A stretch of 25,515 nt of DNA from a virus. Its lineage: Duplodnaviria; Heunggongvirae; Uroviricota; Caudoviricetes. Under the pieces are notes generated by a model. The model saw only the letters and a program-made list of their open reading frames with translations, was not told where the DNA came from and searched no databases. Location: positions 1-25,515 of IMG/VR virus record IMGVR_UViG_2609459834_000009; one strand, written 5' to 3'. Positions 1,449-25,515 of this stretch are shown here, piece by piece (the first letter of the stretch is position 1; every line of letters starts with the position of its first letter). A program made the position numbers and the translations under genes.

Positions 1449-2105
1449 CTATTTAACATACTTGACTGTTAAACTTATAATTTTACCAATTATTTCAATG
1501 TCTTCTATCTTGCATTCGAAGGCTCTGTTTCCACCCTCGACGAAGATTCTTCCACCGGGTAAACGAGTAATGTCACGGATCGTTATTTCGCCATCAATAC
1601 TTATTACCCATTTACCATCACGTATATCATCAAATTCTTTATCACAAATAAATTCAGAATTGTTATCTGTGATGACAAAAGGTTTTTTAAACGTAGAGGG
1701 TAGAAATCCCTTATCAAAAATATAAAAACCGTCTTTCTGCAATGCTCCATCAGACAATAAATATTTTTCTACTTCTATAGTATTTGTATTTGCTGATGCT
1801 TGCTTTGAACCATGCCCTGTTGTTAGCCAATTAAGCGAGGTGCCCGTTTCAAGGGCGCACTGGATTACCCAATCTGCTGGAAAAATATCACGCATATAGC
1901 GCGTTGCCATGGTGCTCTTAGAAACACCTAAATGATCACATAGAGCCTGACGGGTACCGAACCCATATGCTTCAACTAAACGTTCTATGGCTTTCTTACC
2001 GCCGCTATTGAAATCCACAAGTCCTCCAAAGAAATCCAAAATTCGTTGACAGATTCCAAAAGCGATCTTAAAGTTGAACCAGAAGTGTTCTTTTGGAGCC
2101 TTCAC
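1449..2105 (-). CDS. cI: CI-type immunity repressor (helix-turn-helix)
   Basis: HTH-like segment (GTRQALCDHLGVSKSTMATRYMRD) near the N-terminus; divergent from the Apl/Cox-like gene; immediately upstream of int on the same strand as in P2/186. Start at 2105 is GTG; a shorter product from an internal start is possible. Confidence 0.7.
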   Translation of the reverse strand: MKAPKEHFWFNFKIAFGICQRILDFFGGLVDFNSGGKKAIERLVEAYGFGTRQALCDHLGVSKSTMATRYMRDIFPADWVIQCALETGTSLNWLTTGHGSKQASANTNTIEVEKYLLSDGALQKDGFYIFDKGFLPSTFKKPFVITDNNSEFICDKEFDDIRDGKWVISIDGEITIRDITRLPGGRIFVEGGNRAFECKIEDIEIIGKIISLTVKYVK

Positions 2106-4005: not shown

Positions 4006-4232
4006 TGGCTGATGCAATGGATCTCGTACAGCAGCGCGTTGAAGAAGAACGCCAGCGCCATATCCGTGCAGCCCGTGCCAAATCACCGGGCGTGTCACGC
4101 GTACTTTGCATTGAATGTGAAGCGCCAATTCCGCCAGCACGACGCCGCGCCATTCCGGGAGTGCAGCTTTGCATTACCTGTCAGGAAATCGCAGAACTGA
4201 AAGGCAAACATTACAACGGAGGTGCTGTATGA
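4005..4232 (+). CDS. TraR/DksA-family C4 zinc-finger protein
   Basis: Cys-x2-Cys ... Cys-x2-Cys pattern (CIECEAPIP...CITCQ) in a 75-aa protein; AGGAGG RBS; translationally coupled to flanking genes. Confidence 0.75.
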   Translation: MADAMDLVQQRVEEERQRHIRAARAKSPGVSRVLCIECEAPIPPARRRAIPGVQLCITCQEIAELKGKHYNGGAV

Positions 4233-5086
4233 GCACCATCCTGAAATGGGCGGGAAATAAAACCGCCATTATGCCAGAACTGAAAAAATACCTTCCTGCT
4301 GGCCCGCGACTGGTTGAACCTTTCGCGGGTTCCTGTGCTGTGATGATGGAAACGGATTATCCCAGCTATCTGGTTGCGGATATTAATCCTGATTTAATCA
4401 ACCTCTATAAAAAGGTTGCCGCTGATTGTGAATCGTTTATATCTCGCGCCAGAGTTTTATTTGAGATCGCAAACAGGGAGGTGGCTTATTACAACATAAG
4501 GCAGGAGTTTAACTGCTCAACTGAAATTACTGATTTCATGAAAGCGGTATATTTCCTGTATCTTAATCGTCACGGTTACCGTGGTTTATGTCGCTATAAC
4601 AAGAGCGGGCATTTCAACATCCCCTACGGTAATTATAAAAATCCGTATTTCCCTGAAAAAGAACTTCGCACATTTGCAGAAAAAGCCCAGCGAGCAACGT
4701 TTATCTGCGCCAGCTTTGATGAAACGCTGGCGATGTTGAAGGCGGGAGATGTGGTGTATTGCGATCCGCCGTATGACGGTACGTTTTCCGGCTATCACAC
4801 TGATGGTTTCACTGAAGATGACCAGTATCACCTGGCATCCGTTCTTGAACATCGGTCATCAGAAGGACATCCAGTCATTGTTTCTAACAGTGACACATCC
4901 CTGATCCGTTCGCTGTATCGCAATTTTACTCACCACTATATCAAGGTAAAACGCAGCATCGGTGTGGCAGCTGGCGAGGGTAAATCAGCAACAGAAATCA
5001 TTGCTGTTTCCGGGCCGCGCTGCTGGATGGGATTTGATTATTCGCGTGGCGTGGATAGTTCTGCCGTGTACGGAGTACGTGCATGA
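4229..5086 (+). CDS. dam: N6-adenine DNA methyltransferase (Dam-like, D12 class)
   Basis: DPPY catalytic motif and N-terminal AdoMet-binding region ([17 protein letters not shown]); ATG at 4229 with GGAGG RBS; ORF-track start 4169 rejected. Confidence 0.85.
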
Positions 5087-7497
5087 GTCATGCCGATATG
5101 AACAACTGCTGCGGCTTTAACGAGGCTGCCGCAGCATTCTCATGGAACAGCCCGAAAAAGGCCATTAACCCTTATCTGGACCCGGCGGAAGTTGCGCCGG
5201 TTTCTACGCTTTCAAACCTGATCACTCTGTACGCTGCCGATAACGAGCAGGAACAGTTGCGCCGCGAGGCACTGAGTGATCAGGTCTGGGAGCGTTATTT
5301 CTTTAATGAATCACGTGATCCTGTCCAGCGCGAAATGGAGCAGGATAAGCTCATTAGCCGGGCAAAGCTGGCGCATGAGCAGCAGCGTTTTAATTCAGAC
5401 ATGGTCATTCTGGCGGACGTCAACGCCCAGCCTTCCCATATCAGCAAGCCGCTGATGCAACGTATTGAATACTTCAGCAGCCTGGGCAGGCCAAAGGCTT
5501 ATTCCCGCTATTTACGTGAGACGATTAAGCCATGTCTGGAACGACTGGAGCATGTACGCGACAGTCAGCTATCTGCATCTTTTCGCTTTATGGCAAGCCA
5601 TGAAGGGCTGGACGGCCTGCTGATCCTGCCTGAAATGAGTCAGGATCAGGTGAAACGCCTGTCCACCCTGGTAGCTGCGCATATGAGTATGTGCCTTGAT
5701 GCAGCTTGTGGTGATTTGTATGCCACCGATGACGTTAAGCCAGAAGAAATCCGCAAGACATGGGAAAAGGTGGCAGCGGAAACCCTGCGTCTGGATGTCA
5801 TCCCACCTGCGTTTGAGCAACTCCGTCGGAAAAGAAACCGCCGTAAACCCGTGCCCTATGAACTCATTCCGGGTTCGCTGGCGCGTATGTTGTGCGCCGA
5901 CTGGTGGTACCGGAAATTATGGAAGATGCGTTGCGAATGGCGGGAAGAGCAGTTGCGCGCTGTTTGCCTGGTCAGCAAAAAAGCATCTCCTTATGTCAGC
6001 TATGAAGCCGTGATGCATAAACGTGAGCAGCGCCGTAAGTCGCTGGAGTTTTTCCGTTCTCATGAACTGGTGAACGAAGACGGCGACACGCTGGACATGG
6101 AGGATGTGGTAAACGCCAGCAGCAGCAACCCTGCGCATCGCCGCAATGAGATGATGGCCTGTGTTAAAGGTCTGGAGCTTATCGCGGAAATGCGCGGTGA
6201 CTGCGCCGTTTTCTACACTATCACCTGTCCGTCGCGTTTCCATTCCACGCTAAATAACGGCAGACCAAACCCGACCTGGACAAACGCGACGGTAAGACAA
6301 AGCAGCGATTATCTGGTCGGCATGTTTGCTGCATTTCGTAAGGCGATGCACAAAGCCGGGTTGCGCTGGTATGGCGTGCGGGTGGCTGAGCCGCATCATG
6401 ATGGCACAGTTCACTGGCACCTGTTGTGTTTCATGCGCAAAAAAGACCGCCGTGCCATCACTGCATTACTGCGTAAGTTTGCCATCCGTGAAGACCGCGA
6501 GGAGCTGGGCAATAACACTGGGCCGCGCTTTAAGTCTGAGTTGATTAACCCGCGCAAAGGAACGCCGACAAGCTACATCGCGAAATATATCAGTAAGAAC
6601 ATTGACGGTCGTGGTCTGGCTGGCGAGATCAGCAAGGAAACGGGTAAATCTCTGCGTGATAACGCTGAATACGTGAATGCCTGGGCGTCTCTGCATCGTG
6701 TTCAGCAATTCCGCTTCTTTGGTATTCCGGGGCGTCAGGCTTACCGTGAACTTCGCTTGCTGGCTGGTCAGGCGGCAAGGCAACAGGGTGACAAAAAAGC
6801 AGGTGCGCCGGTACTGGATAACCCGCGTCTTGATGCCATTCTGGCTGCTGCTGATGCTGGTTGTTTTGCCACCTACATCATGAAGCAGAGCGGCGTACTG
6901 GTTCCCCGTAAATATCACCTCATCAGAACCGCTTATGAAATCAACGAAGAGCCGACCGCCTATGGCGATCACGGCATTCGTATTTATGGCATCTGGTCAC
7001 CCATTGCAGAGGGCAAGATCTGCACTCATGCAGTGAAGTGGAAAATGGTTCGTAAAGCCGTTGACGTTCAGGAGGCGGCAGCCGACCAGGGCGCTTGCGC
7101 CCCTTGGACTCGTGGCAATAACTGTCCCCTTGCTGAAAATTTGAACCAACAAGGGAAAGACAAATCAGCTGATGGGGATACCAGGACGGACATTACCCGC
7201 ATGGATGACAAGGAGTTGCACGATTACCTGCACAGTATGAGCAAAAAAGAGCGCCGGGAACTGGCTGCAAGGTTACGCCTGGTGAAGCCGAAACGGCGTA
7301 AAGACTACAAACAGCGAATTACAGACCATCAGCGACAGCAGCTCGTCTATGAACTGAAGTCCAGAGGATTTGATGGCAGCGAGAAAGAGGTCGATTTACT
7401 CCTTCGCGGCGGCAGTATTCCGTCAGGAGCAGGCCTGCGTATCTTCTATCGGAACCAGCGTTTGCAGGAAGATGATAAGTGGCGAAACCTGTATTAA
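5083..7497 (+). CDS. A: Replication initiation endonuclease (P2 gene A family, rolling-circle)
   Basis: 804-aa product with HUH-like motif (HWHLLCF) and YIAKYISKN active-site tyrosine region; ATGA overlap with dam stop. Confidence 0.85.
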
Positions 7498-8083: not shown

Positions 8084-8218
8084 GAAACGTTGCTGGCGTC
8101 TGAACTTGTTTCTGGCGTCAGCAAGGTTGAACAACGAGCCCTTGCGAGGCGTTAGCTCTGTAGTGCATGTCTATGCCGCATGAGATCGCATGATCGTTTG
8201 AGGATCGTTTTTGCTAAG

Positions 8219-8242
8219 GCCCGCCAGAACTGGCGGGCTTTT
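8219..8242 (+). terminator. Rho-independent terminator after the SOS module
   Basis: GCCCGCCA-gaac-TGGCGGGC hairpin followed by TTTT. Confidence 0.6.
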
Positions 8243-8287
8243 GCGTAGATCATGCAGGTGCATGAAAACCACTACATAAAGCGGGCA

Positions 8288-8306
8288 GGCGTGGCGGGGA
8301 TACGAG
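8288..8306. other. cos-like motif (possible cohesive-end site)
   Basis: GGCGTGGCGGGGA resembles what I recall of P2/186 cohesive-end sequences; recollection-based and unverified. Confidence 0.3.
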
Positions 8307-8378
8307 CGCGCGCCATGTGGTATGGAGATTGGATCTATTCATAACTTGATGTATAAAGTAGAAAAAAGCGGGGAGATT

Positions 8379-9302
8379 ATGAATAAAAAATTTACCGATG
8401 AGCAGCAACAACAGCTTATAGGACATCTCACAAAGAAAGGCTTCTATCGAGGAGCTAATATTAAAATAACCATTTTTCTATGTGGTGGTGACGTTGCTAA
8501 TCATCAATCTTGGCGTCATCAATTATCACAATTTTTAGCAAAGTTCAGTGATGTTGATATATTTTATCCAGAAGATCTATTTGATGATCTTTTGGCTGGT
8601 CAAGGGCAGCATAGCCTTTTAAGTTTAGAAAATATTCTGGCTGAAGCTGTCGATGTAATAATTTTATTTCCTGAAAGTCCGGGGTCTTTCACAGAGCTTG
8701 GTGCGTTCTCTAATAATGAAAACTTAAGGAGAAAGTTGATTTGCATTCAAGATGCAAAATTTAAATCAAAACGTAGCTTTATTAACTATGGTCCTGTTCG
8801 CCTGTTGCGTAAGTTTAATTCAAAATCTGTTTTGCGTTGTAGTTCAAATGAACTAAAAGAAATGTGTGATTCATCTATTGATGTTGCCAGAAAATTACGA
8901 TTATATAAAAAATTAATGGCATCTATTAAGCAGGTTAGGAAAGAAAATAAAGTATCAAAAGATATTGGAAATATATTATACGCAGAGCGGTTTCTATTGC
9001 CTTGTATCTATTTACTGGATAGTGTCAACTACCGCACACTGTGTGAACTAGCTTTTAAAGCGATAAAGCAAGATGATGTTTTATCTAAAATTATTGTTAG
9101 ATCCGTTGTTTCTCGTCTAATAAATGAACGAAAAATACTTCAAATGACTGATGGTTATCAGGTCACTGCTTTGGGGGCTAGCTATGTTAGGAGCGTCTTT
9201 GATAGAAAGACACTTGACCGATTGCGGCTTGAGATTATGAATTTTGAAAACCGTAGAAAATCAACATTTAACTATGATAAGATTCCGTATGCGCACCCTT
9301 AG
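8379..9302 (+). CDS. Retron effector protein (putative nucleoside 2-deoxyribosyltransferase-like N-domain plus C-terminal domain)
   Basis: 308-aa ORF in AT-rich DNA immediately upstream of msr-msd; its stop codon (TAG 9300-9302) lies inside the a1 repeat. Start ambiguous (ATG at 8322, 8349 or 8379). Confidence 0.7.
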   Translation: MNKKFTDEQQQQLIGHLTKKGFYRGANIKITIFLCGGDVANHQSWRHQLSQFLAKFSDVDIFYPEDLFDDLLAGQGQHSLLSLENILAEAVDVIILFPESPGSFTELGAFSNNENLRRKLICIQDAKFKSKRSFINYGPVRLLRKFNSKSVLRCSSNELKEMCDSSIDVARKLRLYKKLMASIKQVRKENKVSKDIGNILYAERFLLPCIYLLDSVNYRTLCELAFKAIKQDDVLSKIIVRSVVSRLINERKILQMTDGYQVTALGASYVRSVFDRKTLDRLRLEIMNFENRRKSTFNYDKIPYAHP

Positions 9303-9458
9303 CGAGAGGTTTATCATTAAGGTCAACCTCTGGATGTTGTTTCGGCATCCTGCATTGAATCTGAGTTACTGTCTGTTTTCCTTGTTGGAACGGAGAGCAT
9401 CGCCTGATGCTCTCCGAGCCAACCAGGAAACCCGTTTTTTCTGACGTAAGGGTGCGCA
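9290..9458 (+). ncRNA. msr-msd: Retron msr-msd non-coding RNA (template/primer for msDNA)
   Basis: Flanked by 12-nt inverted repeats a1 TGCGCACCCTTA (9290-9301) and a2 TAAGGGTGCGCA (9447-9458); internal msr hairpin AGAGGTT/AACCTCT and long imperfect msd stem around GGAGAGCATC-gcct-GATGCTCTCC; sits directly upstream of the RT gene. Matches my recollection of the Ec86 ncRNA. Confidence 0.85.
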
Positions 9459-9464
9459 ACTTTC

Positions 9465-10427
9465 ATGAAATCCGCTGAATATTTGAACACTTTTAGATTG
9501 AGAAATCTCGGCCTACCTGTCATGAACAATTTGCATGACATGTCTAAGGCGACTCGCATATCTGTTGAAACACTTCGGTTGTTAATCTATACAGCTGATT
9601 TTCGCTATAGGATCTACACTGTAGAAAAGAAAGGCCCAGAGAAGAGAATGAGAACCATTTACCAACCTTCTCGAGAACTTAAAGCCTTACAAGGATGGGT
9701 TCTACGTAACATTTTAGATAAACTGTCGTCATCTCCTTTTTCTATTGGATTTGAAAAGCACCAATCTATTTTGAATAATGCTACCCCGCATATTGGGGCA
9801 AACTTTATACTGAATATTGATTTGGAGGATTTTTTCCCAAGTTTAACTGCTAACAAAGTTTTTGGAGTGTTCCATTCTCTTGGTTATAATCGACTAATAT
9901 CTTCAGTTTTGACAAAAATATGTTGTTATAAAAATCTGCTACCACAAGGTGCTCCATCATCACCTAAATTAGCTAATCTAATATGTTCTAAACTTGATTA
10001 TCGTATTCAGGGTTATGCAGGTAGTCGGGGCTTGATATATACGAGATATGCCGATGATCTCACCTTATCTGCACAGTCTATGAAAAAGGTTGTTAAAGCA
10101 CGTGATTTTTTATTTTCTATAATCCCAAGTGAAGGATTGGTTATTAACTCAAAAAAAACTTGTATTAGTGGGCCTCGTAGTCAGAGGAAAGTTACAGGTT
10201 TAGTTATTTCACAAGAGAAAGTTGGGATAGGTAGAGAAAAATATAAAGAAATTAGAGCAAAGATACATCATATATTTTGCGGTAAGTCTTCTGAGATAGA
10301 ACACGTTAGGGGATGGTTGTCATTTATTTTAAGTGTGGATTCAAAAAGCCATAGAAGATTAATAACTTATATTAGCAAATTAGAAAAAAAATATGGAAAG
10401 AACCCTTTAAATAAAGCGAAGACCTAA
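9465..10427 (+). CDS. ret: Retron-type reverse transcriptase
   Basis: 320-aa product with RT motifs QGAPSSPKLANL and YADD, plus the retron-characteristic VTG motif (RKVTGLVI). Confidence 0.9.
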   Translation: MKSAEYLNTFRLRNLGLPVMNNLHDMSKATRISVETLRLLIYTADFRYRIYTVEKKGPEKRMRTIYQPSRELKALQGWVLRNILDKLSSSPFSIGFEKHQSILNNATPHIGANFILNIDLEDFFPSLTANKVFGVFHSLGYNRLISSVLTKICCYKNLLPQGAPSSPKLANLICSKLDYRIQGYAGSRGLIYTRYADDLTLSAQSMKKVVKARDFLFSIIPSEGLVINSKKTCISGPRSQRKVTGLVISQEKVGIGREKYKEIRAKIHHIFCGKSSEIEHVRGWLSFILSVDSKSHRRLITYISKLEKKYGKNPLNKAKT

Positions 10428-10440
10428 TGGTCTTCGTTTT
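10417..10440. terminator. Bidirectional hairpin terminator between RT (+) and portal gene (-)
   Basis: CGAAGACC-taat-GGTCTTCG followed by TTTT on the plus strand and AAAA beyond; overlaps the RT stop codon. Confidence 0.55.
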
Positions 10441-10444
10441 AAAA

Positions 10445-11470
10445 CTAAAGCTCATAGGTTGAAAAATTGAGCACTTCTTCGTCCAACCAGTTATTTAGTT
10501 CCTGCAATCGTTTCTGCAGGGGCATCAATTCGTTTCTTACGAATACCTTGCTAGCCTTCTCCACATCCCCAAACCCCCCGACATTATTAGGCATAATTCC
10601 CATCATTTGCGGCGGCACGCGGTGTGCCGCCATCATGTCATCACGGCTCACGTTCTTGATATTCAGAAACTCATCCTTCGCTGCGACTTCTGACAACGGG
10701 ATAATCTGAAGTCCGTCTTTTTTACCATTAGGCGAGTACATAAACAGGTTGCGGAAGTTGCCAGGGCCTTTGGCACTTTTCATCGCATTGCGGAGGTTGT
10801 TCACATCTTCCTGGTTCTGCGCGGCGTCGGTCATATACATGATGAAGCCAGCATGACTGCCGTTAATGTAATACTTTCGACGGAACAGCGTGGCGGACTC
10901 ATTGAGCAGGGCGGACGGAATGGCAGAAAGATAGCCTGGCAAGCCGTAGATCTCCTGGTTAATGTCCGGTTCCATCAGATGAAAAATGCTGCCTTTCGTG
11001 AACTGATACGGCTGGGTTGTCATACCGTATTGCACAAACCAGTAGGTATCCAGGTCTAACCCGCGTCGGGTGTATTTTGCCAGTGCAGGCTCAAGGGCGA
11101 TAACTTCACCGAAGCGGTTCGTGCGTTTCTCCAGGTAGGCGTTACCAAAAACCAGATAGTCCTGCACAAAACGCGAAAAAGCCTGCTGGCTGAGCAGCGG
11201 GTGAGGGATGTAGGTGCTGGTCAGAATGTTGCACTTCACTGCAATCGGTGAGCTGTGATGCACGGCGGCGCGGAAGGTTCGCGCCAGTCCGTCGAAACTC
11301 ACAGGCGGCTCATACCAACGATCCATCTGTACGCATTCCACATAGTCCAGCAGTTCGCGGCGGTCCAGAACAGGAACGGGATCGCCAAAGCTGAATGCTT
11401 CGGCTGAAGTTTGGTTTTTATGCTGGATCTGATTCGTCGCCGCAGCGCGTTTTTTCTTACTCTTTCCCAT
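10445..11470 (-). CDS. Q: Portal protein (P2 gpQ family)
   Basis: 341-aa product co-linear with P2 Q; ATG at 11468-11470 with GGAG RBS; start overlaps terminase stop (TGATG). Confidence 0.85.
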   Translation of the reverse strand: MGKSKKKRAAATNQIQHKNQTSAEAFSFGDPVPVLDRRELLDYVECVQMDRWYEPPVSFDGLARTFRAAVHHSSPIAVKCNILTSTYIPHPLLSQQAFSRFVQDYLVFGNAYLEKRTNRFGEVIALEPALAKYTRRGLDLDTYWFVQYGMTTQPYQFTKGSIFHLMEPDINQEIYGLPGYLSAIPSALLNESATLFRRKYYINGSHAGFIMYMTDAAQNQEDVNNLRNAMKSAKGPGNFRNLFMYSPNGKKDGLQIIPLSEVAAKDEFLNIKNVSRDDMMAAHRVPPQMMGIMPNNVGGFGDVEKASKVFVRNELMPLQKRLQELNNWLDEEVLNFSTYEL

Positions 11471-13236
11471 CAAAAAATCTCCACAATATTGCTGGTATTG
11501 GCGGATTCGCCCTGCAGCGGTTCGTTAAACAGTGCGTGCATGGTTGCCCAGGCCAGATCGGCATGGCTGGCTTCTTCGCTGCGGCTGGCTTCATAGGTTG
11601 GGCGGTTGCCGCTGGCGGTGGTGGCGCGACGGATTGCCATAAATGACTGCGCTATGTCGGTGTGTCCGGCGTCAAACTCCAGACGACGGTGACTGATAAT
11701 GTCGTAGGCCTTGAGTACCAGGGCGTTTTTAACGTTGGGGTTGTAGACAAACTCCCGGACGGCTGGAAAAAACGCTTTCACGTTCTCGTAAACCCCGTGG
11801 CCGACACCTGTCGAGTCGATGCCGATGTAGGTCACGTTGTACTGTTCGGTCAGTTTTTTGATGGCGTCAGCCTGGGCGCGAAAGTCCATTCCGCGCCACT
11901 GGTGACGCTCAAGAATGCGGAACTTGCCGCCCGGCACGGCTGGCGGTGCTACCACCACGCATCCGGCGCTGTCGCCATTCTGCGTACCTTTCGCCGGGTC
12001 ATAACCGATCCATACTTCGCGCCAGCCAAACGGGCGCAGGGCCAGTGCATGAAAGTCAGTCCAGACTTCCCAGCTGTCTACCATGCACGCCTGCAGCTCG
12101 CTGAGCGGGAACACGGACGCGAGATCGTCCACAAACTCGCACATCAGCAGGTTCTGGTATTCGTCCGGGCTGTACTCCATGCGCAACTGGTCAAGGTCGA
12201 ACAGGTTACAGCCGCCGCGCACCGCATCTTCCACGGTGACTATCTGGCGGTATTGCCCGTCTGCGCACAGCAGGCCGGGGGCCAGATTGCTGTGGGACAG
12301 GTCGATGTCCACCTTATCGGCTTTGTTGCGCCCACGGTTGAACAGCGCACCGGACCAGAACGGATAAGCACTGTGTGTCAGGCTGGATGGCGTGGAAAAA
12401 TAGGTTTGTCGCCATTTTTTGTGAATAGCCATACCGGAAGCCACTTTGCGCAGCTCCTGGAATTTCGGTATCCAGAAATATTCATCCAGATACAGGTTGC
12501 CGTGGTAACTCTGGGCCGTGCGGGCATTGGTGCCGAGGAAGTAAAGCGTGGCCCCGTTGGGAAGCACCATCGGATCGCCTTTCAGCTCCACCTCCACTTC
12601 TTTGGCGAAGTCGATGATGTACTGCTTAAAGACGTGGGCCTGTGCCTTACTGGCAGAAAGGAAAATCTGGTTACGTCCGGTAAGCAGGGCGTCAATCAGG
12701 GCTTCACGGGCAAAATAGAAGGTCGCGCCGATCTGGCGTGACTTCAGCAGGTTGCGGATGCGGTTGGTTTTTCCGGCTTCCCACCAGTGGCGCTGGTAGT
12801 TGAACATGGAGGAATGGAAAATTTCTTCCAGCTTCTCAATCTGTTCATCGGTGAAAACATTCTTTTCAGGCTGACGGCGTGGGCCTTTGTTGCGGTTGGC
12901 GACGTTAGGGTTTAAGTCAGCTTCGTTGCCGCCATTGTTAAACTTGCCGATCCGCGCGTGGCGCTCCGACTGGCGCGCCAGCAGGTCAATCTCTTTGAAA
13001 TCTTTCCCTTCTTTGTGCTCCTTCATGATGAGCTGGCAGTAGCGTGCGGCGGTGGTGAGCTGCATCTGATCCAGCGGCCCATAGTCACCCCACTTGTCGC
13101 GTTTTTTCCAGCTGTGAACGGTTGCAGCTTTCTCGCCCAGCATTTCAGCAATGCGGGCTACGCGGTATCCCTGAAAGTACAGCAGCATGGCCTGCCGACG
13201 GGGATCGAGATCTGCGGGTGTCAGTGTGGTGTTCAT
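11470..13236 (-). CDS. P: Terminase large (ATPase) subunit (P2 gpP family)
   Basis: 588-aa product; size and position upstream of portal on the minus strand as in P2. Confidence 0.9.
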   Translation of the reverse strand: MNTTLTPADLDPRRQAMLLYFQGYRVARIAEMLGEKAATVHSWKKRDKWGDYGPLDQMQLTTAARYCQLIMKEHKEGKDFKEIDLLARQSERHARIGKFNNGGNEADLNPNVANRNKGPRRQPEKNVFTDEQIEKLEEIFHSSMFNYQRHWWEAGKTNRIRNLLKSRQIGATFYFAREALIDALLTGRNQIFLSASKAQAHVFKQYIIDFAKEVEVELKGDPMVLPNGATLYFLGTNARTAQSYHGNLYLDEYFWIPKFQELRKVASGMAIHKKWRQTYFSTPSSLTHSAYPFWSGALFNRGRNKADKVDIDLSHSNLAPGLLCADGQYRQIVTVEDAVRGGCNLFDLDQLRMEYSPDEYQNLLMCEFVDDLASVFPLSELQACMVDSWEVWTDFHALALRPFGWREVWIGYDPAKGTQNGDSAGCVVVAPPAVPGGKFRILERHQWRGMDFRAQADAIKKLTEQYNVTYIGIDSTGVGHGVYENVKAFFPAVREFVYNPNVKNALVLKAYDIISHRRLEFDAGHTDIAQSFMAIRRATTASGNRPTYEASRSEEASHADLAWATMHALFNEPLQGESANTSNIVEIF

Positions 13237-13282
13237 GGCACAAACCTACAACCTTGAATGAATGCTTTCCCCGCCTGCGGTT

Positions 13283-13300
13283 TGTGTGGTTGTCGGTACA
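13283..13300. promoter_or_regulatory. TGT-N12-ACA dyad in the P/O divergent promoter region (candidate late-activator site)
   Basis: TGTgtggttgtcggtACA in the 142-bp intergenic region between divergent P and O genes; form matches the P2-family late promoter activator element. Confidence 0.4.
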
Positions 13301-13378
13301 AATACCGCGCATTGTTTCACTGCCCCCATCACCGCAACCATAAGGCTCCAGTAAGTTTTTTCTAACGGAGCACGGCTC

Positions 13379-14212
13379 ATGACAGTGAAAGCAAAGCGTT
13401 TTCGCATCGGGGTGGAAGGTGCCACCACCGACGGACGCGAAATCCAGCGTGAATGGCTGGAACAGATGGCAGCCAGCTACAACCCGGCGGTGTATACCGC
13501 GCTGATTAACCTTGAGCACATCAAGTCTTATCTGCCGGACAGCACCTTTAACCGCTACGGTAAGGTGACGGCGCTGTTTGCTGAAGAAATCACGGAAGGT
13601 CCGCTGGCAGGCAAGATGGCGCTGTATGCCGACGTTGAGCCAACGGAGTCCCTGGTGGAACTGGTGAAAAAAGGCCAGAAATTATTCACCTCTATGGAAG
13701 TCAGCCCGAAGTTTGCTGATACGGGCAAAGCCTACCTGGTCGGCCTGGCAGCCACTGATGACCCTGCCAGTCTGGGCACTGAAATGCTGACATTCAGCGC
13801 CAGTGCAGCCCATAACCCGCTGGCAAACCGCAAGCAGAATCCCGCCAATCTCTTTACAGCCGCAGAGGAAACGGTGATCGAACTGGAAGAAATCCAGGAG
13901 GACAAGCCGTCCCTGTTTGCCCGTGTCACGGCGCTGTTCACCAAAAAAGAGCAGTCCGATGACGCCCGGTTCTCTGATGTGCATAAGGCCGTGGAACTGG
14001 TCGCCACTGAGCAGCAGAACCTGAGTGCGCGCACCGAAAAATCCCTGTCTGAGCAGGAAGAGCGCCTGTCTGAGCTGGAGACAGCCCTGCAGGCACAGCA
14101 GACCGCCTTTAACGAACTGGTGGACAAGCTGAGCCAAGAAGACAGCCGCCAGGACTACCGCCAGCGTGCAACAGGCGGTAACGCCCCCGCTGACACTCTG
14201 ACCAATTGCTGA
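13379..14212 (+). CDS. O: Capsid scaffolding protein (P2 gpO family)
   Basis: 277-aa product; first gene of the rightward capsid operon; acidic coiled-coil-like C-terminal half. Confidence 0.85.
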   Translation: MTVKAKRFRIGVEGATTDGREIQREWLEQMAASYNPAVYTALINLEHIKSYLPDSTFNRYGKVTALFAEEITEGPLAGKMALYADVEPTESLVELVKKGQKLFTSMEVSPKFADTGKAYLVGLAATDDPASLGTEMLTFSASAAHNPLANRKQNPANLFTAAEETVIELEEIQEDKPSLFARVTALFTKKEQSDDARFSDVHKAVELVATEQQNLSARTEKSLSEQEERLSELETALQAQQTAFNELVDKLSQEDSRQDYRQRATGGNAPADTLTNC

Positions 14213-18744: not shown

Positions 18745-19183
18745 ACTGCAGAAGGTGGACGACTGGCTGAGTGCCTTGCTGGCGAATCTGGAACCAGCCA
18801 CGAGAAGCCGTATGATGCGCCAGCTGGCGCAGGAATTGCGCCGGACACAGCAGCAGAATATCAGGATGCAGCGCAATCCAGATGGCAGCAGTTATGAACC
18901 GCGCAGGGTAACAGCACGCAGCAAGAAGGGGCGCATCAAACGTCAGATGTTTGCAAAGCTGCGCACCACAAAATACCTGAAAACTGCCGCCAGCGCCGAC
19001 TCTGCCAGCGTACAGTTTGAAGGCAAGGTGCAGCGTATTGCCCGTGTTCACCATTACGGCCTGCGTGATCGCGTCAGTCGCAAAGGACCGGAGGTCCGTT
19101 ACGCAGAGCGCCGCCTGCTGGGTGTAAATGATGATGTTGAGGCAATGACCCGCGACATGATTCTGCAATGGCTGGCGGGGTGA
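18737..19183 (+). CDS. S: Tail completion / virion morphogenesis protein S (P2 gpS family)
   Basis: 148-aa product (DDWLSALLANLEP...) resembling P2 gpS; GTG start overlapping R stop. Confidence 0.75.
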   Translation: MAELQKVDDWLSALLANLEPATRSRMMRQLAQELRRTQQQNIRMQRNPDGSSYEPRRVTARSKKGRIKRQMFAKLRTTKYLKTAASADSASVQFEGKVQRIARVHHYGLRDRVSRKGPEVRYAERRLLGVNDDVEAMTRDMILQWLAG

Positions 19184-19187
19184 TCTT

Positions 19188-19205
19188 TGTATCAGCACTG
19201 ATACA
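19188..19205. promoter_or_regulatory. TGT-N12-ACA near-perfect palindrome between S and V (candidate late-activator site and/or S terminator hairpin)
   Basis: TGTATCAGcaCTGATACA directly after the S stop; no U-tract follows. Confidence 0.35.
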
Positions 19206-19251
19206 AGTTGCAGCACTGCCGCCTTTCTTCCCCTGATGGCAACCTTTCCCT

Positions 19252-19830
19252 ATGAACGCACAATTAACCGAAATCATGCGCCTTATCACCAATCTGATCC
19301 GCACAGGTGTAGTCACCGAAGTGGACCGGGAAAACTGGCTTTGTCGGGTGAAAACGGGCGACCTTGAAACCAACTGGATTAACTGGCTGACGCTGCGCGC
19401 GGGTAATGCCCGCACATGGTGGAAACCATCGGAAGGTGAGCAGGTGGTGCTGCTGAGTCTGGGAGGCAATCTGGAAACCGCGTTTGCGCTGCCCGCCATC
19501 TATTCGAATCAGCTCGCGCCACCGTCGACGTCGGCGGACGCCTGCGTGACAGAACATCCTGACGGTGGCTGGTTTGAATATGAACCCGCCACCGGGCGCT
19601 GGTATGTCAGGGGCATCAAATCAATGGTCATTGAGGCCGCTGACAACATCACCATGAAAACCAGTGAGTTTGTACTGGAGGCTGACCGCACGCGCATTAA
19701 CAGCGAAGTGGTGATCAATGGTGGCGTTACCCAGGGCGGCGGAGCGATGAGTTCTAACGGGATCGTGGTTGATGCGCATCAGCATACTGGCGTCCTGAAA
19801 GGCGGCGACACAACCGGAGGCCCGGTATGA
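19252..19830 (+). CDS. V: Baseplate spike/assembly protein V (P2 gpV family)
   Basis: 192-aa product aligning with P2 gpV from the first Met (NLIRTGVVTEVD, TWWKPSEGEQVVLLSLGG). Confidence 0.85.
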   Translation: MNAQLTEIMRLITNLIRTGVVTEVDRENWLCRVKTGDLETNWINWLTLRAGNARTWWKPSEGEQVVLLSLGGNLETAFALPAIYSNQLAPPSTSADACVTEHPDGGWFEYEPATGRWYVRGIKSMVIEAADNITMKTSEFVLEADRTRINSEVVINGGVTQGGGAMSSNGIVVDAHQHTGVLKGGDTTGGPV

Positions 19831-21679: not shown

Positions 21680-23415
21680 GCACAAAATTTTATACCCTGC
21701 TGACGGATATTGGCGCGGCGAAACTTGCCAGCGCCGCCGCGCTCGGTGTGCCGCTAAAAATTACCCATATGGCGGTGGGCGATGGCGGCGGAGTATTGCC
21801 AACGCCGGACGCAAAGCAGACGGCACTGGTAAATGAGAAACGCCGGGCTGCGCTGAATATGCTTTATATCGACCCGCAGAACAGCAGCCAGATTATTGCT
21901 GAACAGGTGATCCCTGAAAACGAGGGCGGTTGGTGGATACGTGAAGTGGGCCTGTTTGATGAGTCCGGGGCATTGATTGCCGTGGGAAACTGCCCGGAAA
22001 GCTATAAGCCGCAACTGGCTGAAGGCAGCGGGCGTACCCAGACCGTGCGCATGGTGCTGATTACCAGCAGTACGGACAATATCACCCTGAAAATCGACCC
22101 TGCTGTAGTGCTGGCAACCCGCAAGTATGTGGATGACAAGGCACTGGAGCTGAAGGTGTACGCGGATGATCAGATGGCAAAACATCTTGCCGCACCGGAC
22201 CCGCATTCACAGTACGCGCCAAAAGCCAGCCCGACATTTACCGGAACCCCCAAAGCGCCAACGCCAGCGGCGGGGAATAATACCACGCAGGTTGCGACCA
22301 CTGCGTTTGTACAGGCGGCACTGACGGACCTTATTAATGGTGCGCCAGCCACGCTGGACACGCTGAAAGAAATAGCCGCAGCCATTAACAATGATCCGAA
22401 TTTCAGTACCACCATTAACAATGCGCTGGCACTAAAAGCACCGTTGTCGAGTCCGGCACTCACCGGAACGCCAACAGCCCCCACGGCGGCGCAGTCGGTC
22501 AACAATACACAGATTGCCACTACGGCTTTTGTGAAATCGGCGATTGCAGGAATGGTGGGTTCTGCACCTGCTGCACTGGATACACTGAACGAACTGGCGG
22601 CGGCACTGGGGAATGATCCGAACTTTGCCACGACAATGCTTAATGCGCTGGCAGGTAAACAACCGCTGGACAATACGCTTACCAATTTGAGTGGAAAGGA
22701 TGTAGCTGGTCTTCTCACATACCTTGGTATTAAAAACGCATCAACAACACAGGTGGGTTTAGTCCGGTTAACGTCATCGCGGGTATCGGGTGCAGAGGAT
22801 ATTGCAGCCACAGCTAATGCTGTCGCGCAAAACTATACGGACATAAAATCTTTGCAAAACAAAACTCAGGATTCAACTACGACACAGAAAGGAATTGTTC
22901 AACTTACATCATCAAGGGTATCCGAATCTGAAACGCTTGCTGCAACAGCAAAAGCGGCAGCGATGAATTATGCGGATATTGTAGCTCTGCAAGGCAAGAC
23001 TAATGATGCAACCACTACAAACAAGGGAATTATCCGCGTATCTGATTCCAGAACATCAACAGAATCTGGTGTTGCTGCATCATCACTTGCTGCATCACAA
23101 AACTATTCAGATATGAAAGGGTTGTTTGGTCAATGCGGAATGAAATCTAGAAATCTCGGTGTCGTATACACCAACAGCCAGTCTTTCGCCATATTTGTAA
23201 GCGTCAATGCGGTGCTGTCTGACGGTAGTTCATTTCTGAGCGCCAACGTAAGCGTGGATGGTAATTCGGCTAATTTTCGCGGCTCTCAGACAACAAATCT
23301 TGCAGGGCAAAGAGCAACTATCGCATTCATGGTTCCTGCCGGTGCGACCTATATTGTGCAGCAGTTTTCAGGAACAGTGTCAGATGTTACCTGGGTAGAG
23401 GTGGATAAAAAATGA
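21676..23415 (+). CDS. H: Tail fibre protein H with internal repeats and an AT-rich C-terminal receptor-binding region
   Basis: 579-aa product; conserved P2-H-like N-terminus; two tandem ~72-aa repeats and three ~43-aa repeats; composition shifts to AT-rich after about 22670. Confidence 0.85.
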   Translation: MSTKFYTLLTDIGAAKLASAAALGVPLKITHMAVGDGGGVLPTPDAKQTALVNEKRRAALNMLYIDPQNSSQIIAEQVIPENEGGWWIREVGLFDESGALIAVGNCPESYKPQLAEGSGRTQTVRMVLITSSTDNITLKIDPAVVLATRKYVDDKALELKVYADDQMAKHLAAPDPHSQYAPKASPTFTGTPKAPTPAAGNNTTQVATTAFVQAALTDLINGAPATLDTLKEIAAAINNDPNFSTTINNALALKAPLSSPALTGTPTAPTAAQSVNNTQIATTAFVKSAIAGMVGSAPAALDTLNELAAALGNDPNFATTMLNALAGKQPLDNTLTNLSGKDVAGLLTYLGIKNASTTQVGLVRLTSSRVSGAEDIAATANAVAQNYTDIKSLQNKTQDSTTTQKGIVQLTSSRVSESETLAATAKAAAMNYADIVALQGKTNDATTTNKGIIRVSDSRTSTESGVAASSLAASQNYSDMKGLFGQCGMKSRNLGVVYTNSQSFAIFVSVNAVLSDGSSFLSANVSVDGNSANFRGSQTTNLAGQRATIAFMVPAGATYIVQQFSGTVSDVTWVEVDKK

Positions 23416-23780
23416 TAACAATGATGAAGTATTACAAAGATGAAAATAACGTCGTATATGCCTACGATGCGTATGGCACACAGGATGCTTTTATCAAAGA
23501 AGGGCTTGTGCCAATCACCAGAAGTGAGGCTATGGCAATTATTAATCCCCCACCGACTCATGAACAACTCATCCAGGCTGCTGAAAATGAGCGACAGCGA
23601 TTACTGTCCGCCGCTGATGCAATTATGCTCGACTGGCGCACAGAGCTGATGCTGGGTGAAATCAGCGATGCCAACAGAGCTAAACTTTCGGCGTGGCTTT
23701 TATATAAGAATCAGGTTAAGGCTGTTGATGTAACAACCGACCCTGAGCATGTTAACTGGCCTGTCATCCCGGAACTTTAG
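23412..23780 (+). CDS. G: Tail fibre assembly chaperone (gpG/Tfa family)
   Basis: 122-aa ORF immediately after H with ATGA overlap; AT-rich like the H C-terminus. Confidence 0.7.
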   Translation: MITMMKYYKDENNVVYAYDAYGTQDAFIKEGLVPITRSEAMAIINPPPTHEQLIQAAENERQRLLSAADAIMLDWRTELMLGEISDANRAKLSAWLLYKNQVKAVDVTTDPEHVNWPVIPEL

Positions 23781-23785
23781 CTGGT

Positions 23786-23971
23786 TTGGCTATTGCCAGA
23801 TCCAAAGGCCGGATTGGTGGGCGTAGACCGAAGTTTAGCGACGAGCAGTGGCAACAGATGGGAGCGCTCATAGCGGCAGGGAAATCACGGCGTTATGTTG
23901 CACGTATCTATAACGTTGGGCTATCAACCCTATATAAACGATTTCCTGTTACTGGCATTCAAACGAAATAA
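23786..23971 (+). pseudogene. C-terminal fragment of a Gin/Pin/Hin-type serine DNA invertase (HTH domain only)
   Basis: Translation LAIARSKGRIGGRRPKFSDEQWQQ...VGLSTLYKRFP matches the C-terminal DNA-binding domain of invertases; no catalytic N-terminal domain; no ATG (TTG in track); similarity begins about 23771, directly at the tfa stop. Confidence 0.6.
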
Positions 23972-24107
23972 TTTATTTAAAGAGTTATTTGTCTAATGTT
24001 GGAAGCCGCAGCCACGTCGTATGCAAGAACGTGCTGCGGCTGGCTGGAGAACTTTCGATAGTGCGAGTATTGAATGATTTCCAGCCGTTACCGATTTTAC
24101 GTGTTAA

Positions 24108-24356
24108 TTAGTGAACAAACCACTCGTCAGCAGATTCCCAGGTATCTTTCAGAGTCTCCTGAACAAAAGTTTTTGCAGAATCCTTATCTGCTGTGCGTGT
24201 AACAGAAAGGCCATCGTTGCTGGTGGCTTTTACGATCACCTCTACATCGTCATAACGTTTACTGATGCGTCGGGTTAATTCTTCCTTTAACGCATCCACA
24301 GCACCGGTTGGCATTTTAGTCATTTTTTCTTTGGCTATGCAGATTTCAATACGCAT
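24108..24356 (-). CDS. DinI-family protein (second paralog)
   Basis: 82-aa product [11 protein letters not shown]...[10 protein letters not shown], close to my recollection of E. coli DinI. Confidence 0.8.
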
Positions 24357-24369
24357 AAAAGTCCCTCTA

Positions 24370-24417
24370 TACTGTGTTTGTATACAGTATTATTTTTAAC
24401 TGTATAGATAAACAGTG
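24370..24417. promoter_or_regulatory. Two tandem LexA boxes upstream of the second dinI-like gene
   Basis: tACTGTgtttgtatACAGta (24370-24389) and aaCTGTatagataaACAGtg (24398-24417), both CTGT-N8-ACAG. Confidence 0.65.
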
Positions 24418-25515
24418 TCAAGAGGCCTTATTTCTGCTCCTTTGGAGCTCTTCAAAACGATTATGTAAAGATTTCGGATACAGTTCGGTATATACCTGCC
24501 ATAGCACGTTTAATGAACGATGCCCTGTAACCTGGGCGACTTCCTCAATACTAAAACCAGCCTCAAATAAGCGACTTGCCCCTTCTCTACGCAAATCATG
24601 GTATCGCAGATCTTTAATACCTAATTTGCTTCTTACCCTCTGGAATCCCGCAGTAACAGAAGTGCTGTTATATGGAAAAATGAATTCTGATTTTTTGGGT
24701 TGTCGTTGGACGATATCCCAGGCTTCCCCAAGCAAGGCTACTTTCATATGGTTGCCTTCCTTTTTACGTGGATCTTTCCTGTCTCTTACGAGTATGGATT
24801 TTTGTTCCTGATCGAGATCCTCCCATCGTAATCGGCATACTTCACCGATTCGCATACATGACCACACAGAAAATTTGAGGATATCAACGAACGGAATTTT
24901 TGAGCATTTATGTGTAGATCGTTGTTGAAGACCTTCAATGAGCATGTCCAGTTCATCAGATGCCGGTCTACGATTACGACGATTTGATTTACCAATTAAA
25001 CCAAGTTTAAGTAGATATGGACGAGCGGCTTTTGCTGGGTTTGATGTGTAATTAATTCCATATACAGGTTTGGCAGCATCCAGAACACTGCCAAGATAAC
25101 TAACATCGTGGCTAACTGTAGCTGGACCTGCACCAGCGTTGTTTCTTAGCCTGCAATGTTCAATTACGTCATTTTCTGTCAGTTCAGATAGTTTGATCGC
25201 GGAGATGTCACTATCCATAAGCAGTTCCAGCACATATCTTTTAGTACGGCCTGCTTTACCTCCGGCATTTGGGTCATTTAAATATTTGTGTAGTAAGTCA
25301 CGGACTGTAAGTCCGTCAACTGCATTTGATGATGGAATGCCATATAGATCTAATTCCATCACTTTCTGTGTGCCCCATGTTTTGGCATGAGCATGTTTAG
25401 GGAATGTTTTACTTTCCCTGTAAGTGATAACACCTTTTTCTTTGATAATCACATTACAGCGATAGCGTGGTGTGCCATCGGATTTTAGTCGTTTCTCTAT
25501 GTTATAGTACGCCAT
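24418..25515 (-). CDS. Tyrosine-type integrase of a second integrative element (start at window edge; may be N-terminally incomplete)
   Basis: 365-aa translation with phage-integrase C-terminal catalytic region (HDLRREGASRL, ...VYTELYP); the ATG at 25513-25515 is the last codon of the window. Confidence 0.75.
   Translation of the reverse strand: MAYYNIEKRLKSDGTPRYRCNVIIKEKGVITYRESKTFPKHAHAKTWGTQKVMELDLYGIPSSNAVDGLTVRDLLHKYLNDPNAGGKAGRTKRYVLELLMDSDISAIKLSELTENDVIEHCRLRNNAGAGPATVSHDVSYLGSVLDAAKPVYGINYTSNPAKAARPYLLKLGLIGKSNRRNRRPASDELDMLIEGLQQRSTHKCSKIPFVDILKFSVWSCMRIGEVCRLRWEDLDQEQKSILVRDRKDPRKKEGNHMKVALLGEAWDIVQRQPKKSEFIFPYNSTSVTAGFQRVRSKLGIKDLRYHDLRREGASRLFEAGFSIEEVAQVTGHRSLNVLWQVYTELYPKSLHNRFEELQRSRNKAS

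Follow-up and report, generated by a model that had tools for sequence, protein, structure and literature searches.

Features of the locus

Within the analysed stretch of 25,515 nucleotides (the window), an effector gene, a structured msr-msd RNA and a reverse transcriptase (RT) gene follow one another on the plus strand at 8379-10427, and all three were found to be intact, as a sequence-only reading of this DNA had proposed for a three-component retron. That reading also placed the three components in an AT-rich insert of about 2.1 kb within a GC-richer prophage, and indeed the GC content was 35.5% at 8314-10444 against 51.6% elsewhere in the window. The features and the evidence for each of them are listed in Table 1.

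Table 1. Coordinates of the retron components, their subelements and the flanking phage landmarks (positions in the window; a dot marks features given without a strand)
Feature	Position	Strand	Description	Evidence
Putative cos cohesive-end sequence	8288-8306	.	GGCGTGGCGGGGATACGAG; left landmark of the slot	Homology to P2 cos
Retron cassette as a unit	8314-10444	+	2.13 kb, 35.5% GC	Homology breakpoints, GC
Candidate effector promoter	8331-8359	+	TTGGAT, 17 nt, TATAAA	Read from sequence
Effector gene	8379-9302	+	NDT-like N-glycosidase with C-terminal DNA-binding lobe (STM3845/St85 family)	PDB, PADLOC, NCBIfam
Effector codon 185	8931-8933	+	CAG (Gln), AAG (Lys) in BL21	Sole amino-acid difference from reference Ec86
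a1 inverted repeat	9290-9301	+	TGCGCACCCTTA; overlaps last effector codons	12/12 complementary to a2
Predicted branching (priming) guanosine	9302	+	TTAGC directly 3' of a1, context CCTTAGCGAG; third base of effector stop	
msr	9303-9359	+	Hairpins SL1 9305-9331 and SL2 9332-9350 (8-bp stem, UUU loop)	RNA fold
msd template	9360-9445	+	Stem arms 9377-9401 and 9406-9430	Sequence and DNA fold
Dcm motif (CCWGG)	9423-9427	+	CCAGG; CCTGG in msDNA stem, msDNA nt 19-23	Motif search
a2 inverted repeat	9447-9458	+	TAAGGGTGCGCA; ends 6 nt before RT start codon	Complements a1
Retron RT, RT-Eco1 (Ec86)	9465-10427	+	320 aa	PDB identity, Pfam, PADLOC, NCBIfam, motifs
GC-rich hairpin	10417-10436	.	CGAAGACC-TAAT-GGTCTTCG, T-runs on both strands	Terminator scan and sequence
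Portal gene (P2 gpQ homologue)	10445-11470	-	Right landmark; last ~12 codons in swapped segment	

The effector consists of 307 amino acids followed by a stop codon, and the length of 308 amino acids given by the sequence-only reading had taken in that stop codon. It was identical to PDB 7V9X_C/8QBK at 306 of 307 positions, matched the PADLOC model NDT_II-A best (3e-94) and scored 176 bits against NCBIfam NF038232 (STM3845_fam, cut-off 100). A Pfam-A search returned no family for the effector, the Pfam copy used being evidently without PF28093 (STM3845), which a precomputed annotation assigns to this protein; the PADLOC and NCBIfam matches decided the family. The catalytic residue E106 and the ligand-binding or dimer-interface residues E65, D69, S100, N112, S133 and R141 were all kept, and the same seven residues were invariant or at least 90% conserved among 121 homologues. 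The mechanical open reading frame begins at 8322 (326 aa), but the ATG at 8379 was preferred as start, because a GGGGAG Shine-Dalgarno sequence precedes this ATG and because the protein has 307 amino acids in PDB and RefSeq. The candidate promoter is followed by an A-run at 8362-8367 and then by the Shine-Dalgarno sequence; it was missed by a consensus promoter scan because the final base of its -10 element is not T. The A-run, just upstream of the ribosome-binding site, has six A residues versus eight in BL21 (2 nt shorter), which is a caveat for function.

The RT was identical at 320 of 320 positions to PDB 7V9U_A and also 100% identical to 7V9X/8QBK, and it showed the motifs NATPH at aa 105-109 (region X, NAxxH), QGAPSSP at 161-167, YADD at 195-198 and VTG at 243-245 (region Y), the last three of which had already been read from the sequence. 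It matched Pfam RVT_1 (2.9e-25) and, in a defense-system search, PADLOC RT_II-A (7.1e-128), PADLOC retron RT models leading the matches, and it scored 288 bits against NCBIfam NF038233 (retron_St85_RT, cut-off 235). The RVT_1 palm domain is common to group II intron maturases, DGR RTs and Abi/UG/DRT enzymes, and weak matches to group_II_RT_mat, Drt3a and Drt2 were also obtained, so that the protein might be taken for a member of one of these classes beside which the hairpins are incidental. However, these matches reached only 46 bits (cut-off 300), 36 bits (200) and 35 bits (390), respectively, the retron-specific NAxxH and VTG motifs were present, and neither an intron RNA nor a DGR template/variable repeat pair nor an Rfam match to a group II intron was found. 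A non-retron class is refuted by the 100% identity to the Ec86 RT and by the NCBIfam scores, and we give it practically no chance of being correct. Three minus-strand open reading frames over the ncRNA and RT (9268-9459, 9323-9559, 9659-9856) were dismissed as mechanical and unsupported.

The msr-msd RNA

The ncRNA comprises 169 nt, all 169 of which were identical to E. coli BL21(DE3) and to nine further loci, so that the earlier impression of an RNA and RT identical or nearly identical to Ec86 proved right for both. The 12-nt inverted repeats noted at its two ends were complementary throughout, the chance expectation for such a pair in 321 nt being about 0.003. When RNA 9290-9459 was folded, the minimum energy was -81.1 kcal/mol versus -46.1 +/- 3.9 kcal/mol for shuffled sequences (z = -9.0, 0/200 shuffles as good). 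This fold has the canonical layout: a1 pairs with a2, the msr forms two hairpins and the msd a long one. What region Y of RT-Eco1 binds is the 8-bp stem with its UUU loop (PMC6868368). G9302 would serve as the branching nucleotide, as the identity to Ec86 ncRNA and the general layout of retrons suggest (PMC6868368).

The reverse complement of the msd corresponds to a predicted msDNA of 86 nt, GTCAGAAAAAAC...GTAACTCAGA (85 nt in structures), in agreement with the 85 versus 86 nt published for Ec86 msDNA (PMC12673091), and its fold had an energy of -23.6 kcal/mol (z = -7.3). The CCTGG Dcm motif in the msDNA stem has been reported as the trigger site (bioRxiv 10.1101/2023.08.16.553469). Since RT and ncRNA are 100% identical to the characterised Ec86, the window copy is expected to yield branched msDNA with a 2'-5' RNA-DNA linkage. 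Rfam 15 gave zero matches over the whole window at gathering thresholds, and at E <= 10 over 9150-9600 it gave chance-level miRNA and leader matches only and no retron ncRNA family; this reflects library coverage, not lack of structure.

The cos-portal slot and its cargo

The cassette begins 7 bp past the cos sequence and stops within the portal gene's 3' end. GGCGTGGCGGGGATACGAG aligned with P2 cosL/cosR (GGCGAGGCGGGGAAAGCAC) together with conserved flanks, and 8250-8313 was 100% identical to many P2-like phages, Fels-2 included, which suggests that 8288-8306 acts as the cos of a P2/186-like prophage. Compared with the prophage of E. coli 23AR0998, which lacks the retron, homology broke off at 8313 and restarted at 10482, and the C-terminal tail of the portal protein (...LDEEVLNFSTYEL) was common to BL21, unlike that of 23AR0998 and P2. 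The RT and portal genes converge on the GC-rich hairpin, which is probably a bidirectional terminator, as the terminator scan and its sequence indicate. The window contains intact gpA, capsid and lysis genes; the P2 tail-sheath operon lies beyond it, and the prophage may therefore be incomplete.

Ten other prophages, with portal, terminase and gpA genes that differed by 0-20%, carried the cassette at 99.8-100% identity, and it lay in the same slot in 10 of 10 comparison loci. In relatives the slot held other cargo (23AR0998 has two hypothetical genes there, P2 about 160 bp). The place of the cassette, next to cos and with gpA on one side and the portal gene on the other, is thus one that carries alternative cargo in related prophages. 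All 48 E. coli matches to the cassette were chromosomal prophages. The window itself was 98.0% identical over 86% of its length to the best-matching complete E. coli genome, and none of eight contigs with the exact effector was collinear with the window at 100%. Searched with the cassette DNA, 50,697 sequenced phage genomes matched in nothing but the 64-bp cos flank; searched with the RT protein, they gave best matches of at most 33% identity, so that no isolated phage in this collection carries Eco1.

The sharp drop in GC and the 99.8-100% identity across otherwise divergent backgrounds could also be expected of a chromosomal island, or of a mobile element in its own right, that merely lies beside phage genes. 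We regard this as very improbable, because the segment is flanked on both sides by phage genes within the prophage, starts 7 bp after cos and abuts or overlaps the portal 3' end, because it is without integrase or transposase, and because it takes the same slot in all 10 comparison loci, a slot filled with other cargo in relatives.

Identity of the retron

From the RT (320/320), the ncRNA (169/169) and the effector (306/307) compared with the Ec86 references, we conclude with high confidence that this is Retron-Eco1 (Ec86), a tripartite retron of type II-A3 that a P2/186-like prophage carries as cargo in the interval from cos to the portal gene's end; none of the results spoke against this identification. 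The sequence-only reading had suspected a known system, which it is, the textbook copy differing by just one amino acid (effector K185Q). The cos-adjacent slot, which the same reading held to be the more notable part, is likewise already known: the slot of Ec86 and Ec67 was described by Dodd & Egan in 1996, as cited in PMC6868368, and Rousset et al. generalised it in 2022 as a cos-adjacent defence hotspot of P2-like phages (PMC9122126).

The locus therefore carries little weight as a discovery, Ec86/Retron-Eco1 being among the best-characterised retrons, and serves mainly as a positive control that a retron can be recognised from raw sequence. The Ec86 msDNA was described in 1989, cryo-EM structures followed in 2022-2024, and the system is a workhorse of retron genome editing.

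Proposed mechanism

By analogy with the essentially identical BL21 copy, msDNA synthesis, filament assembly, trigger and defence may be pictured for the window copy, more tentatively so for its K185Q effector, as follows. The msr-msd RNA would fold with a1 and a2 paired, the RT would bind the msr hairpin and prime at the 2'-OH of branching nucleotide G9302, and the msd would be copied from 9445 down to about 9360 into an msDNA of 85-86 nt still joined to the msr. RT and msDNA would then bind the NDT-like N-glycosidase effector in filaments that keep it inactive, until methylation of the CCTGG in the msDNA stem by a phage-encoded cytosine methyltransferase (Dcm) releases its activity; the active effector would hydrolyse NAD(P)+ and deplete adenine nucleosides, so that infection aborts, and the cassette would act as a superinfection-exclusion module for the prophage. 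Abortive infection triggered by phage Dcm is taken over here from the literature on Ec86 (bioRxiv 10.1101/2023.08.16.553469, PMC12673091).

In one comparison locus (L011) a C5 cytosine methyltransferase adjoins the retron, and we considered it as a self-trigger. This was rejected because its partner is a restriction enzyme of the BbrUII/HgiDII family, which makes the two an ordinary type II restriction-modification (R-M) pair. HgiDII recognises GTCGAC, not CCWGG.

The K185Q effector allele

In the Ec86 effector, K185 hydrogen-bonds the backbone of the msDNA stem, K185A abolished defence against phage K42, and K29, K149, K177 and K185 were the msDNA-contacting lysines found by K-to-A mutants to be needed for defence (bioRxiv 10.1101/2023.08.16.553469). 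The window effector has K29, K149 and K177 and has Q at 185, so this set is incomplete. The substitution bears on activity, not on membership of Ec86 by descent. Across 121 family members, column 185 was K in 49 (40%), N in 14, S in 11, A in 11 and Q in 6, with I, R and D also present. At least 113 contigs (159 index blocks) carried Q185, spread over several different prophage backbones, and in every case all three retron components were intact; the exact effector sequence was also recorded under Salmonella enterica. Among 48 complete E. coli genomes carrying the retron Q185 occurred in one, a count biased by about 40 of the 48 being laboratory derivatives of E. coli B.

The locus might thus be Retron-Eco1 by descent and yet be dead or attenuated in defence, msDNA still being made while K185Q weakens the contact between effector and msDNA; the effector would then either not be properly held and activated, or the system would be deaf to its trigger. 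The loss of activity in K185A, the contact of K185 with the stem backbone, the removal of the positive charge of Lys by Gln and the single Q185 genome among the 48 all speak for such a defect. On the other hand, Gln, unlike Ala, can still hydrogen-bond, the column is variable in the family, the 48-genome count is skewed by the E. coli B derivatives, and the presence of Q185 on at least 113 contigs with all parts intact is a pattern unlike that of a decaying pseudogene. On balance we think a dead or attenuated allele unlikely.

The naturally circulating Q185 could also be a non-neutral variant of sensitivity in a retron of solved structure, in which the loss of one charged contact to the msDNA stem retunes how the state of the msDNA is coupled to the release of the effector. 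This suggestion, which we hold to be rather doubtful, is entertained since K185A kills defence, whereas more than 100 contigs and several prophage backbones have kept Q185. If Q185 does retune the coupling, a changed trigger threshold, phage spectrum or autoimmunity cost might result. K185Q thus points to a natural allele at a residue that mutagenesis marked as essential, and it would be cheap to test with existing structures and assays.

Comparison with known retrons and P2-like loci

The Retron-Eco1 (Ec86) of E. coli B/BL21(DE3) has the same RT, msr-msd and effector-ncRNA-RT order as the window copy, the same cos-portal slot in a P2/186-like prophage and the same portal C-terminal tail. Only four nucleotide differences were found in 2.15 kb, namely K185Q (8931), a synonymous AGA/AGG change in the RT (10355) and the A6 instead of A8 run. 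The BL21 prophage has an extra DUF8087 gene across cos, a truncated gpA and missing capsid genes, whereas the window prophage has intact gpA, capsid and lysis genes and a gpA-side slot of just 69 bp.

Retron-Sen2 (St85) and other type II-A retrons with NDT effectors belong to the same NCBIfam/Pfam families (STM3845 effector, St85-family RT) and are likewise built of three parts; E65, S100, E106 and S133, invariant in the effector, are common to them and to the window copy. The effectors of those family members that were retrieved from outside the Ec86 cluster were 41-84% identical. The context of St85 is reported to differ, being an ancient prophage site adjoining SGI1 (PMC6868368). Retron-Eco2 (Ec67), in a 186-related prophage, is reported to replace the same ~180 bp, from cos to the terminator of a packaging gene (Dodd & Egan 1996, as cited in PMC6868368), but it is a type I-C retron with an RT-Toprim fusion, and the window RT matched the Ec67 protein in PDB weakly (E = 4.5e-34 over aa 23-273).

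The tin/old locus of P2 and the hotspot of Rousset et al. 2022 hold variable anti-phage cargo between gpA and gpQ at cos, with retrons among the listed cargo (PMC9122126). P2 carries old and tin on the gpA side of cos, whereas the window has the retron on the portal side and an empty gpA side, and relatives fill the two sides of cos independently, such as L011 with a BbrUII/HgiDII-type R-M system and the retron.

Identity of the retron

The retron at 8379-10427 is real and was correctly read from the sequence alone, with coordinates and description that held apart from the effector length; neither the system nor its phage setting is new. The RT was identical (320/320) to the Ec86 reverse transcriptase in PDB 7V9U, 7V9X and 8QBK, and contained NATPH (region X), QGAPSSP, YADD and VTG (region Y), in agreement with the 320-aa RT with QGxPxSP, YADD and VTG motifs reported earlier. 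Of the 307 effector residues, 306 matched the Ec86 effector of entries 7V9X, 8QBK and their relatives in the PDB. The PADLOC check proposed in the sequence-only reading returned RT_II-A as the best model for the RT (7.1e-128) and NDT_II-A for the effector (3e-94), and both proteins exceeded their NCBIfam cut-offs (retron_St85_RT, 288 bits vs 235; STM3845_fam). The DNA of 8300-10450 was 99.8% identical to E. coli BL21(DE3), with four differences, and the ncRNA was identical over 169/169 nt to BL21 and nine other loci. By these RT, effector, DNA and ncRNA identities, the locus is Retron-Eco1 (Ec86), classed as type II-A3 (PMC12746101; PMC12673091), in line with the earlier view that the system was probably known.

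Other RT classes scored far under their cut-offs (group II intron maturase, 46 bits vs 300; Drt3a, 36 vs 200; Drt2, 35 vs 390), and the enzyme is not of the group II intron or Abi type. RefSeq begins the BL21(DE3) RT (13243-14130 of locus L001) at an internal codon and so gives it 295 aa; the 320-aa form is the one in other genomes and in every PDB entry, and lengths of 301 and 304 aa have been called as well; this mismatch is inconsistent annotation, not differing sequence. The A-run at 8362-8367 (A6 here, A8 in BL21(DE3)) lies between a putative -10 TATAAA (8354-8359) and the effector Shine-Dalgarno, and is a homopolymer that differs in length within what is likely the 5' UTR or the region of transcription start.

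Features of the prophage and its retron (window coordinates)
Feature	Position	Strand	Remarks
Integrase	1-~1053	-	
CI repressor	1449-2105	-	
CII and Fil homologues	between CI repressor and gpA		
Dam-like methylase	4169-5086		orphan N6-adenine methyltransferase of the D12 class, directly ahead of gpA; Pfam 2.7e-75; PADLOC oMTase 1.6e-110
gpA	5083-7497		
DinI-like gene	ends 8083		followed by cos and retron
cos	8288-8306		GGCGTGGCGGGGATACGAG; aligns with P2 cohesive end GGCGAGGCGGGGAAAGCAC and flanks
Difference from BL21(DE3)	8362-8367		A-run 2 nt shorter, upstream of effector
Effector ORF	8379-9302	+	307 aa
Difference from BL21(DE3)	8931		C here, A in BL21(DE3)
ncRNA	9290-9458	+	169 nt, non-coding stretch
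a1	9290-9301	+	TGCGCACCCTTA; perfect 12-nt inverted repeat with a2
a2	9447-9458	+	TAAGGGTGCGCA; perfect 12-nt inverted repeat with a1
RT ORF	9465-10427	+	320 aa
Difference from BL21(DE3)	10355		synonymous A/G in RT
Portal	10445-11470	-	
Terminase	11470-13236	-	
Capsid, lysis, baseplate, tail-fibre genes	after terminase, through to tail-fibre assembly gene		
Tail-fibre assembly gene	23412-23780		
Hin-like recombinase fragment	within 23786-25515		61 aa
DinI-like gene	24108-24356	-	
Second tyrosine integrase	24418-25515	-	

Organization of the retron and its ncRNA

The three retron features are closely packed on the + strand. The mechanical effector ORF starts at 8322; the ATG at 8379 has a GGGGAG ribosome-binding site before it and yields the very protein of RefSeq and the PDB, so that the ORF was rightly placed there but encodes 307 aa rather than the 308 aa first given. 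GC content was 35.5% in 8314-10444 vs 51.6% across the remaining window, which bears out the description of an AT-rich insert in a GC-richer prophage.

The predicted 12-nt inverted repeats flanking the ncRNA were found to be perfect (chance expectation for such pairs, ~0.003 in the 321 nt searched), and the final codons of the effector reach into a1. The ncRNA folded at -81.1 kcal/mol vs -46.1 +/- 3.9 in dinucleotide shuffles (z = -9.0), with the a1/a2 stem named beforehand as a check, two msr hairpins (that at 9332-9350 with an 8-bp stem and a UUU loop) and a long msd hairpin (9377-9401 / 9406-9430). Going by identity with the Ec86 ncRNA and by the general retron layout (PMC6868368), G9302 in the effector TAG stop (context TTAGC) would be the position of the Ec86 priming guanosine. 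The RT would be expected to begin copying opposite C9445 and to end at ~9360, with a predicted msDNA GTCAGAAAAAACGGG...GTAACTCAGA of 86 nt; the count in recent structures is 85 nt (PMC12673091). The predicted molecule, folded as DNA, gave one extended hairpin (-23.6 kcal/mol, z = -7.3) with CCTGG at nt 19-23 (window 9423-9427). Rfam 15 had no covariance model that detected the ncRNA, even at E <= 10, so automated RNA annotation would leave it blank. GATC was absent from the ncRNA, and therefore no interaction is expected with the Dam-like methylase.

Proposed effector mechanism and the K185Q allele

The mechanism of the window copy can be proposed from studies of the near-identical BL21 copy, as described in bioRxiv 10.1101/2023.08.16.553469 and PMC12673091 (the latter summarising Carabias et al. 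2024 and Wang et al. 2022/2024). RT-msDNA would bind the bilobed effector (N-terminal NDT-like N-glycosidase and C-terminal lobe) and form filaments with it, keeping the enzyme primed yet inactive; a phage-encoded Dcm would methylate CCTGG in the msDNA stem, and the activated effector would then deplete adenine, adenosine and deoxyadenosine and hydrolyse NAD(P)+, whereupon infection would abort. Residues E65, D69, S100, E106, N112, S133 and R141, flagged in the same sources as catalytic, ligand-binding or dimer-forming, were all kept in the window effector and were invariant or at least 90% conserved among 121 family members.

The natural K185Q allele, at an msDNA-contacting residue, is the only point that goes beyond textbook Ec86. 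Owing to C8931, codon 185 (8931-8933) is CAG (Gln) here vs AAG (Lys). K185 in helix alpha-9 hydrogen-bonds the msDNA stem backbone in the filament structure, and the K185A mutant no longer defended against phage K42 (bioRxiv 10.1101/2023.08.16.553469), from which attenuated or lost defence might be supposed for Q185. However, Gln185 is still able to hydrogen-bond, and column 185 is variable across the 121 family members (K 49, N 14, S 11, A 11, I 7, Q 6, R 5, D 5). Moreover, the exact Q185 protein was present on at least 113 contigs (159 index blocks), some in records named Salmonella enterica, and in several distinct prophage backbones, with intact partners every time. Attenuation or loss of defence is unlikely, and a genuine retuning of sensitivity by the Q185 allele slightly less likely still. 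The retron was found in 48 of 5,426 complete E. coli genomes, and Q185 in one of the 48 (FDAARGOS_433), a ratio that says little because about 40 of them are laboratory B-strain derivatives.

The prophage and the retron insertion

The prophage of the window is of the P2/186 type, and Fels-2 and many P2-like phages share the 64 bp around its cos at 100% identity. Compared with the retron-less prophage of E. coli 23AR0998 (99.2% identical to that point), homology stops at 8313, seven bases beyond cos, and restarts at 10482, 37 nt into the portal gene; in this slot 23AR0998 has two small hypothetical genes and P2 ~160 bp. The retron-bearing prophages share a distinctive portal C-terminus ...LDEEVLNFSTYEL (341 aa vs 344 aa). 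The last ~12 portal codons (10445-10482) travel with the retron cassette; the portal tails of the retron-less relative and P2 are different and 3 aa longer. Ten prophages had the cassette at 99.8-100% identity, although their divergence from the window was 0-6% in portal, 2-3% in terminase and 3-20% in gpA, the mark of a module exchanged through recombination at a hotspot. None of the 50,697 records in a collection of isolated phage genomes had this retron.

P2-like sequence ends at ~23780, after the tail-fibre assembly gene. The last 1.7 kb (23786-25515) comprises the Hin-like fragment, the DinI-like gene and the second tyrosine integrase; in E. coli EcPF16 another prophage has this module, at 99.5% identity, as its dusA-proximal end. 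The 25,515-nt window lacked the genes for tail sheath, tube and tape measure as well as gpD and ogr; with the tail-sheath operon and ogr outside it, the prophage may be truncated or rearranged. Its gpA, capsid and lysis genes are intact, unlike those of the BL21 prophage.

Comparison with known cargo slots

The phage context had been rated the more notable part, a view that does not stand: the placement of Ec86 beside cos in a prophage is already published, and in P2-like phages the cos-proximal gpA-gpQ region was shown to be a hotspot where anti-phage cargo, retrons included, is carried (Rousset et al. 2022, PMC9122126). Two independent sub-slots, one either side of cos, are visible in this hotspot. 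P2 has old and tin on the gpA side, whereas the window has its retron on the portal side, the retron position in every case. The gpA-side sub-slot (8093-8162) is essentially empty in the window (69 bp, plus a terminator-like hairpin at ~8218-8245), in contrast to BL21 and VG1046-3E9, which have a DUF8087 gene there; other relatives have one or two gpA-side genes together with the retron, such as a BbrUII/HgiDII-type R-M pair in locus L011.

The gap between tail-completion gene S and baseplate gene V (19183-19252) looks like a third variable slot: it is empty in the window, but P2 has orf30 there, BL21 a DUF6216 gene and VG1046-3E9 a TIR-domain protein. The integrase-to-CI interval (1050-1450), short and low in GC here, is a further cargo slot with nothing in it in the window; genes for large ATPases occupy it in relatives, where VG1046-3E9 has an AAA ATPase, locus L008 a KAP NTPase and locus L010 an SMC/AAA_15 protein.
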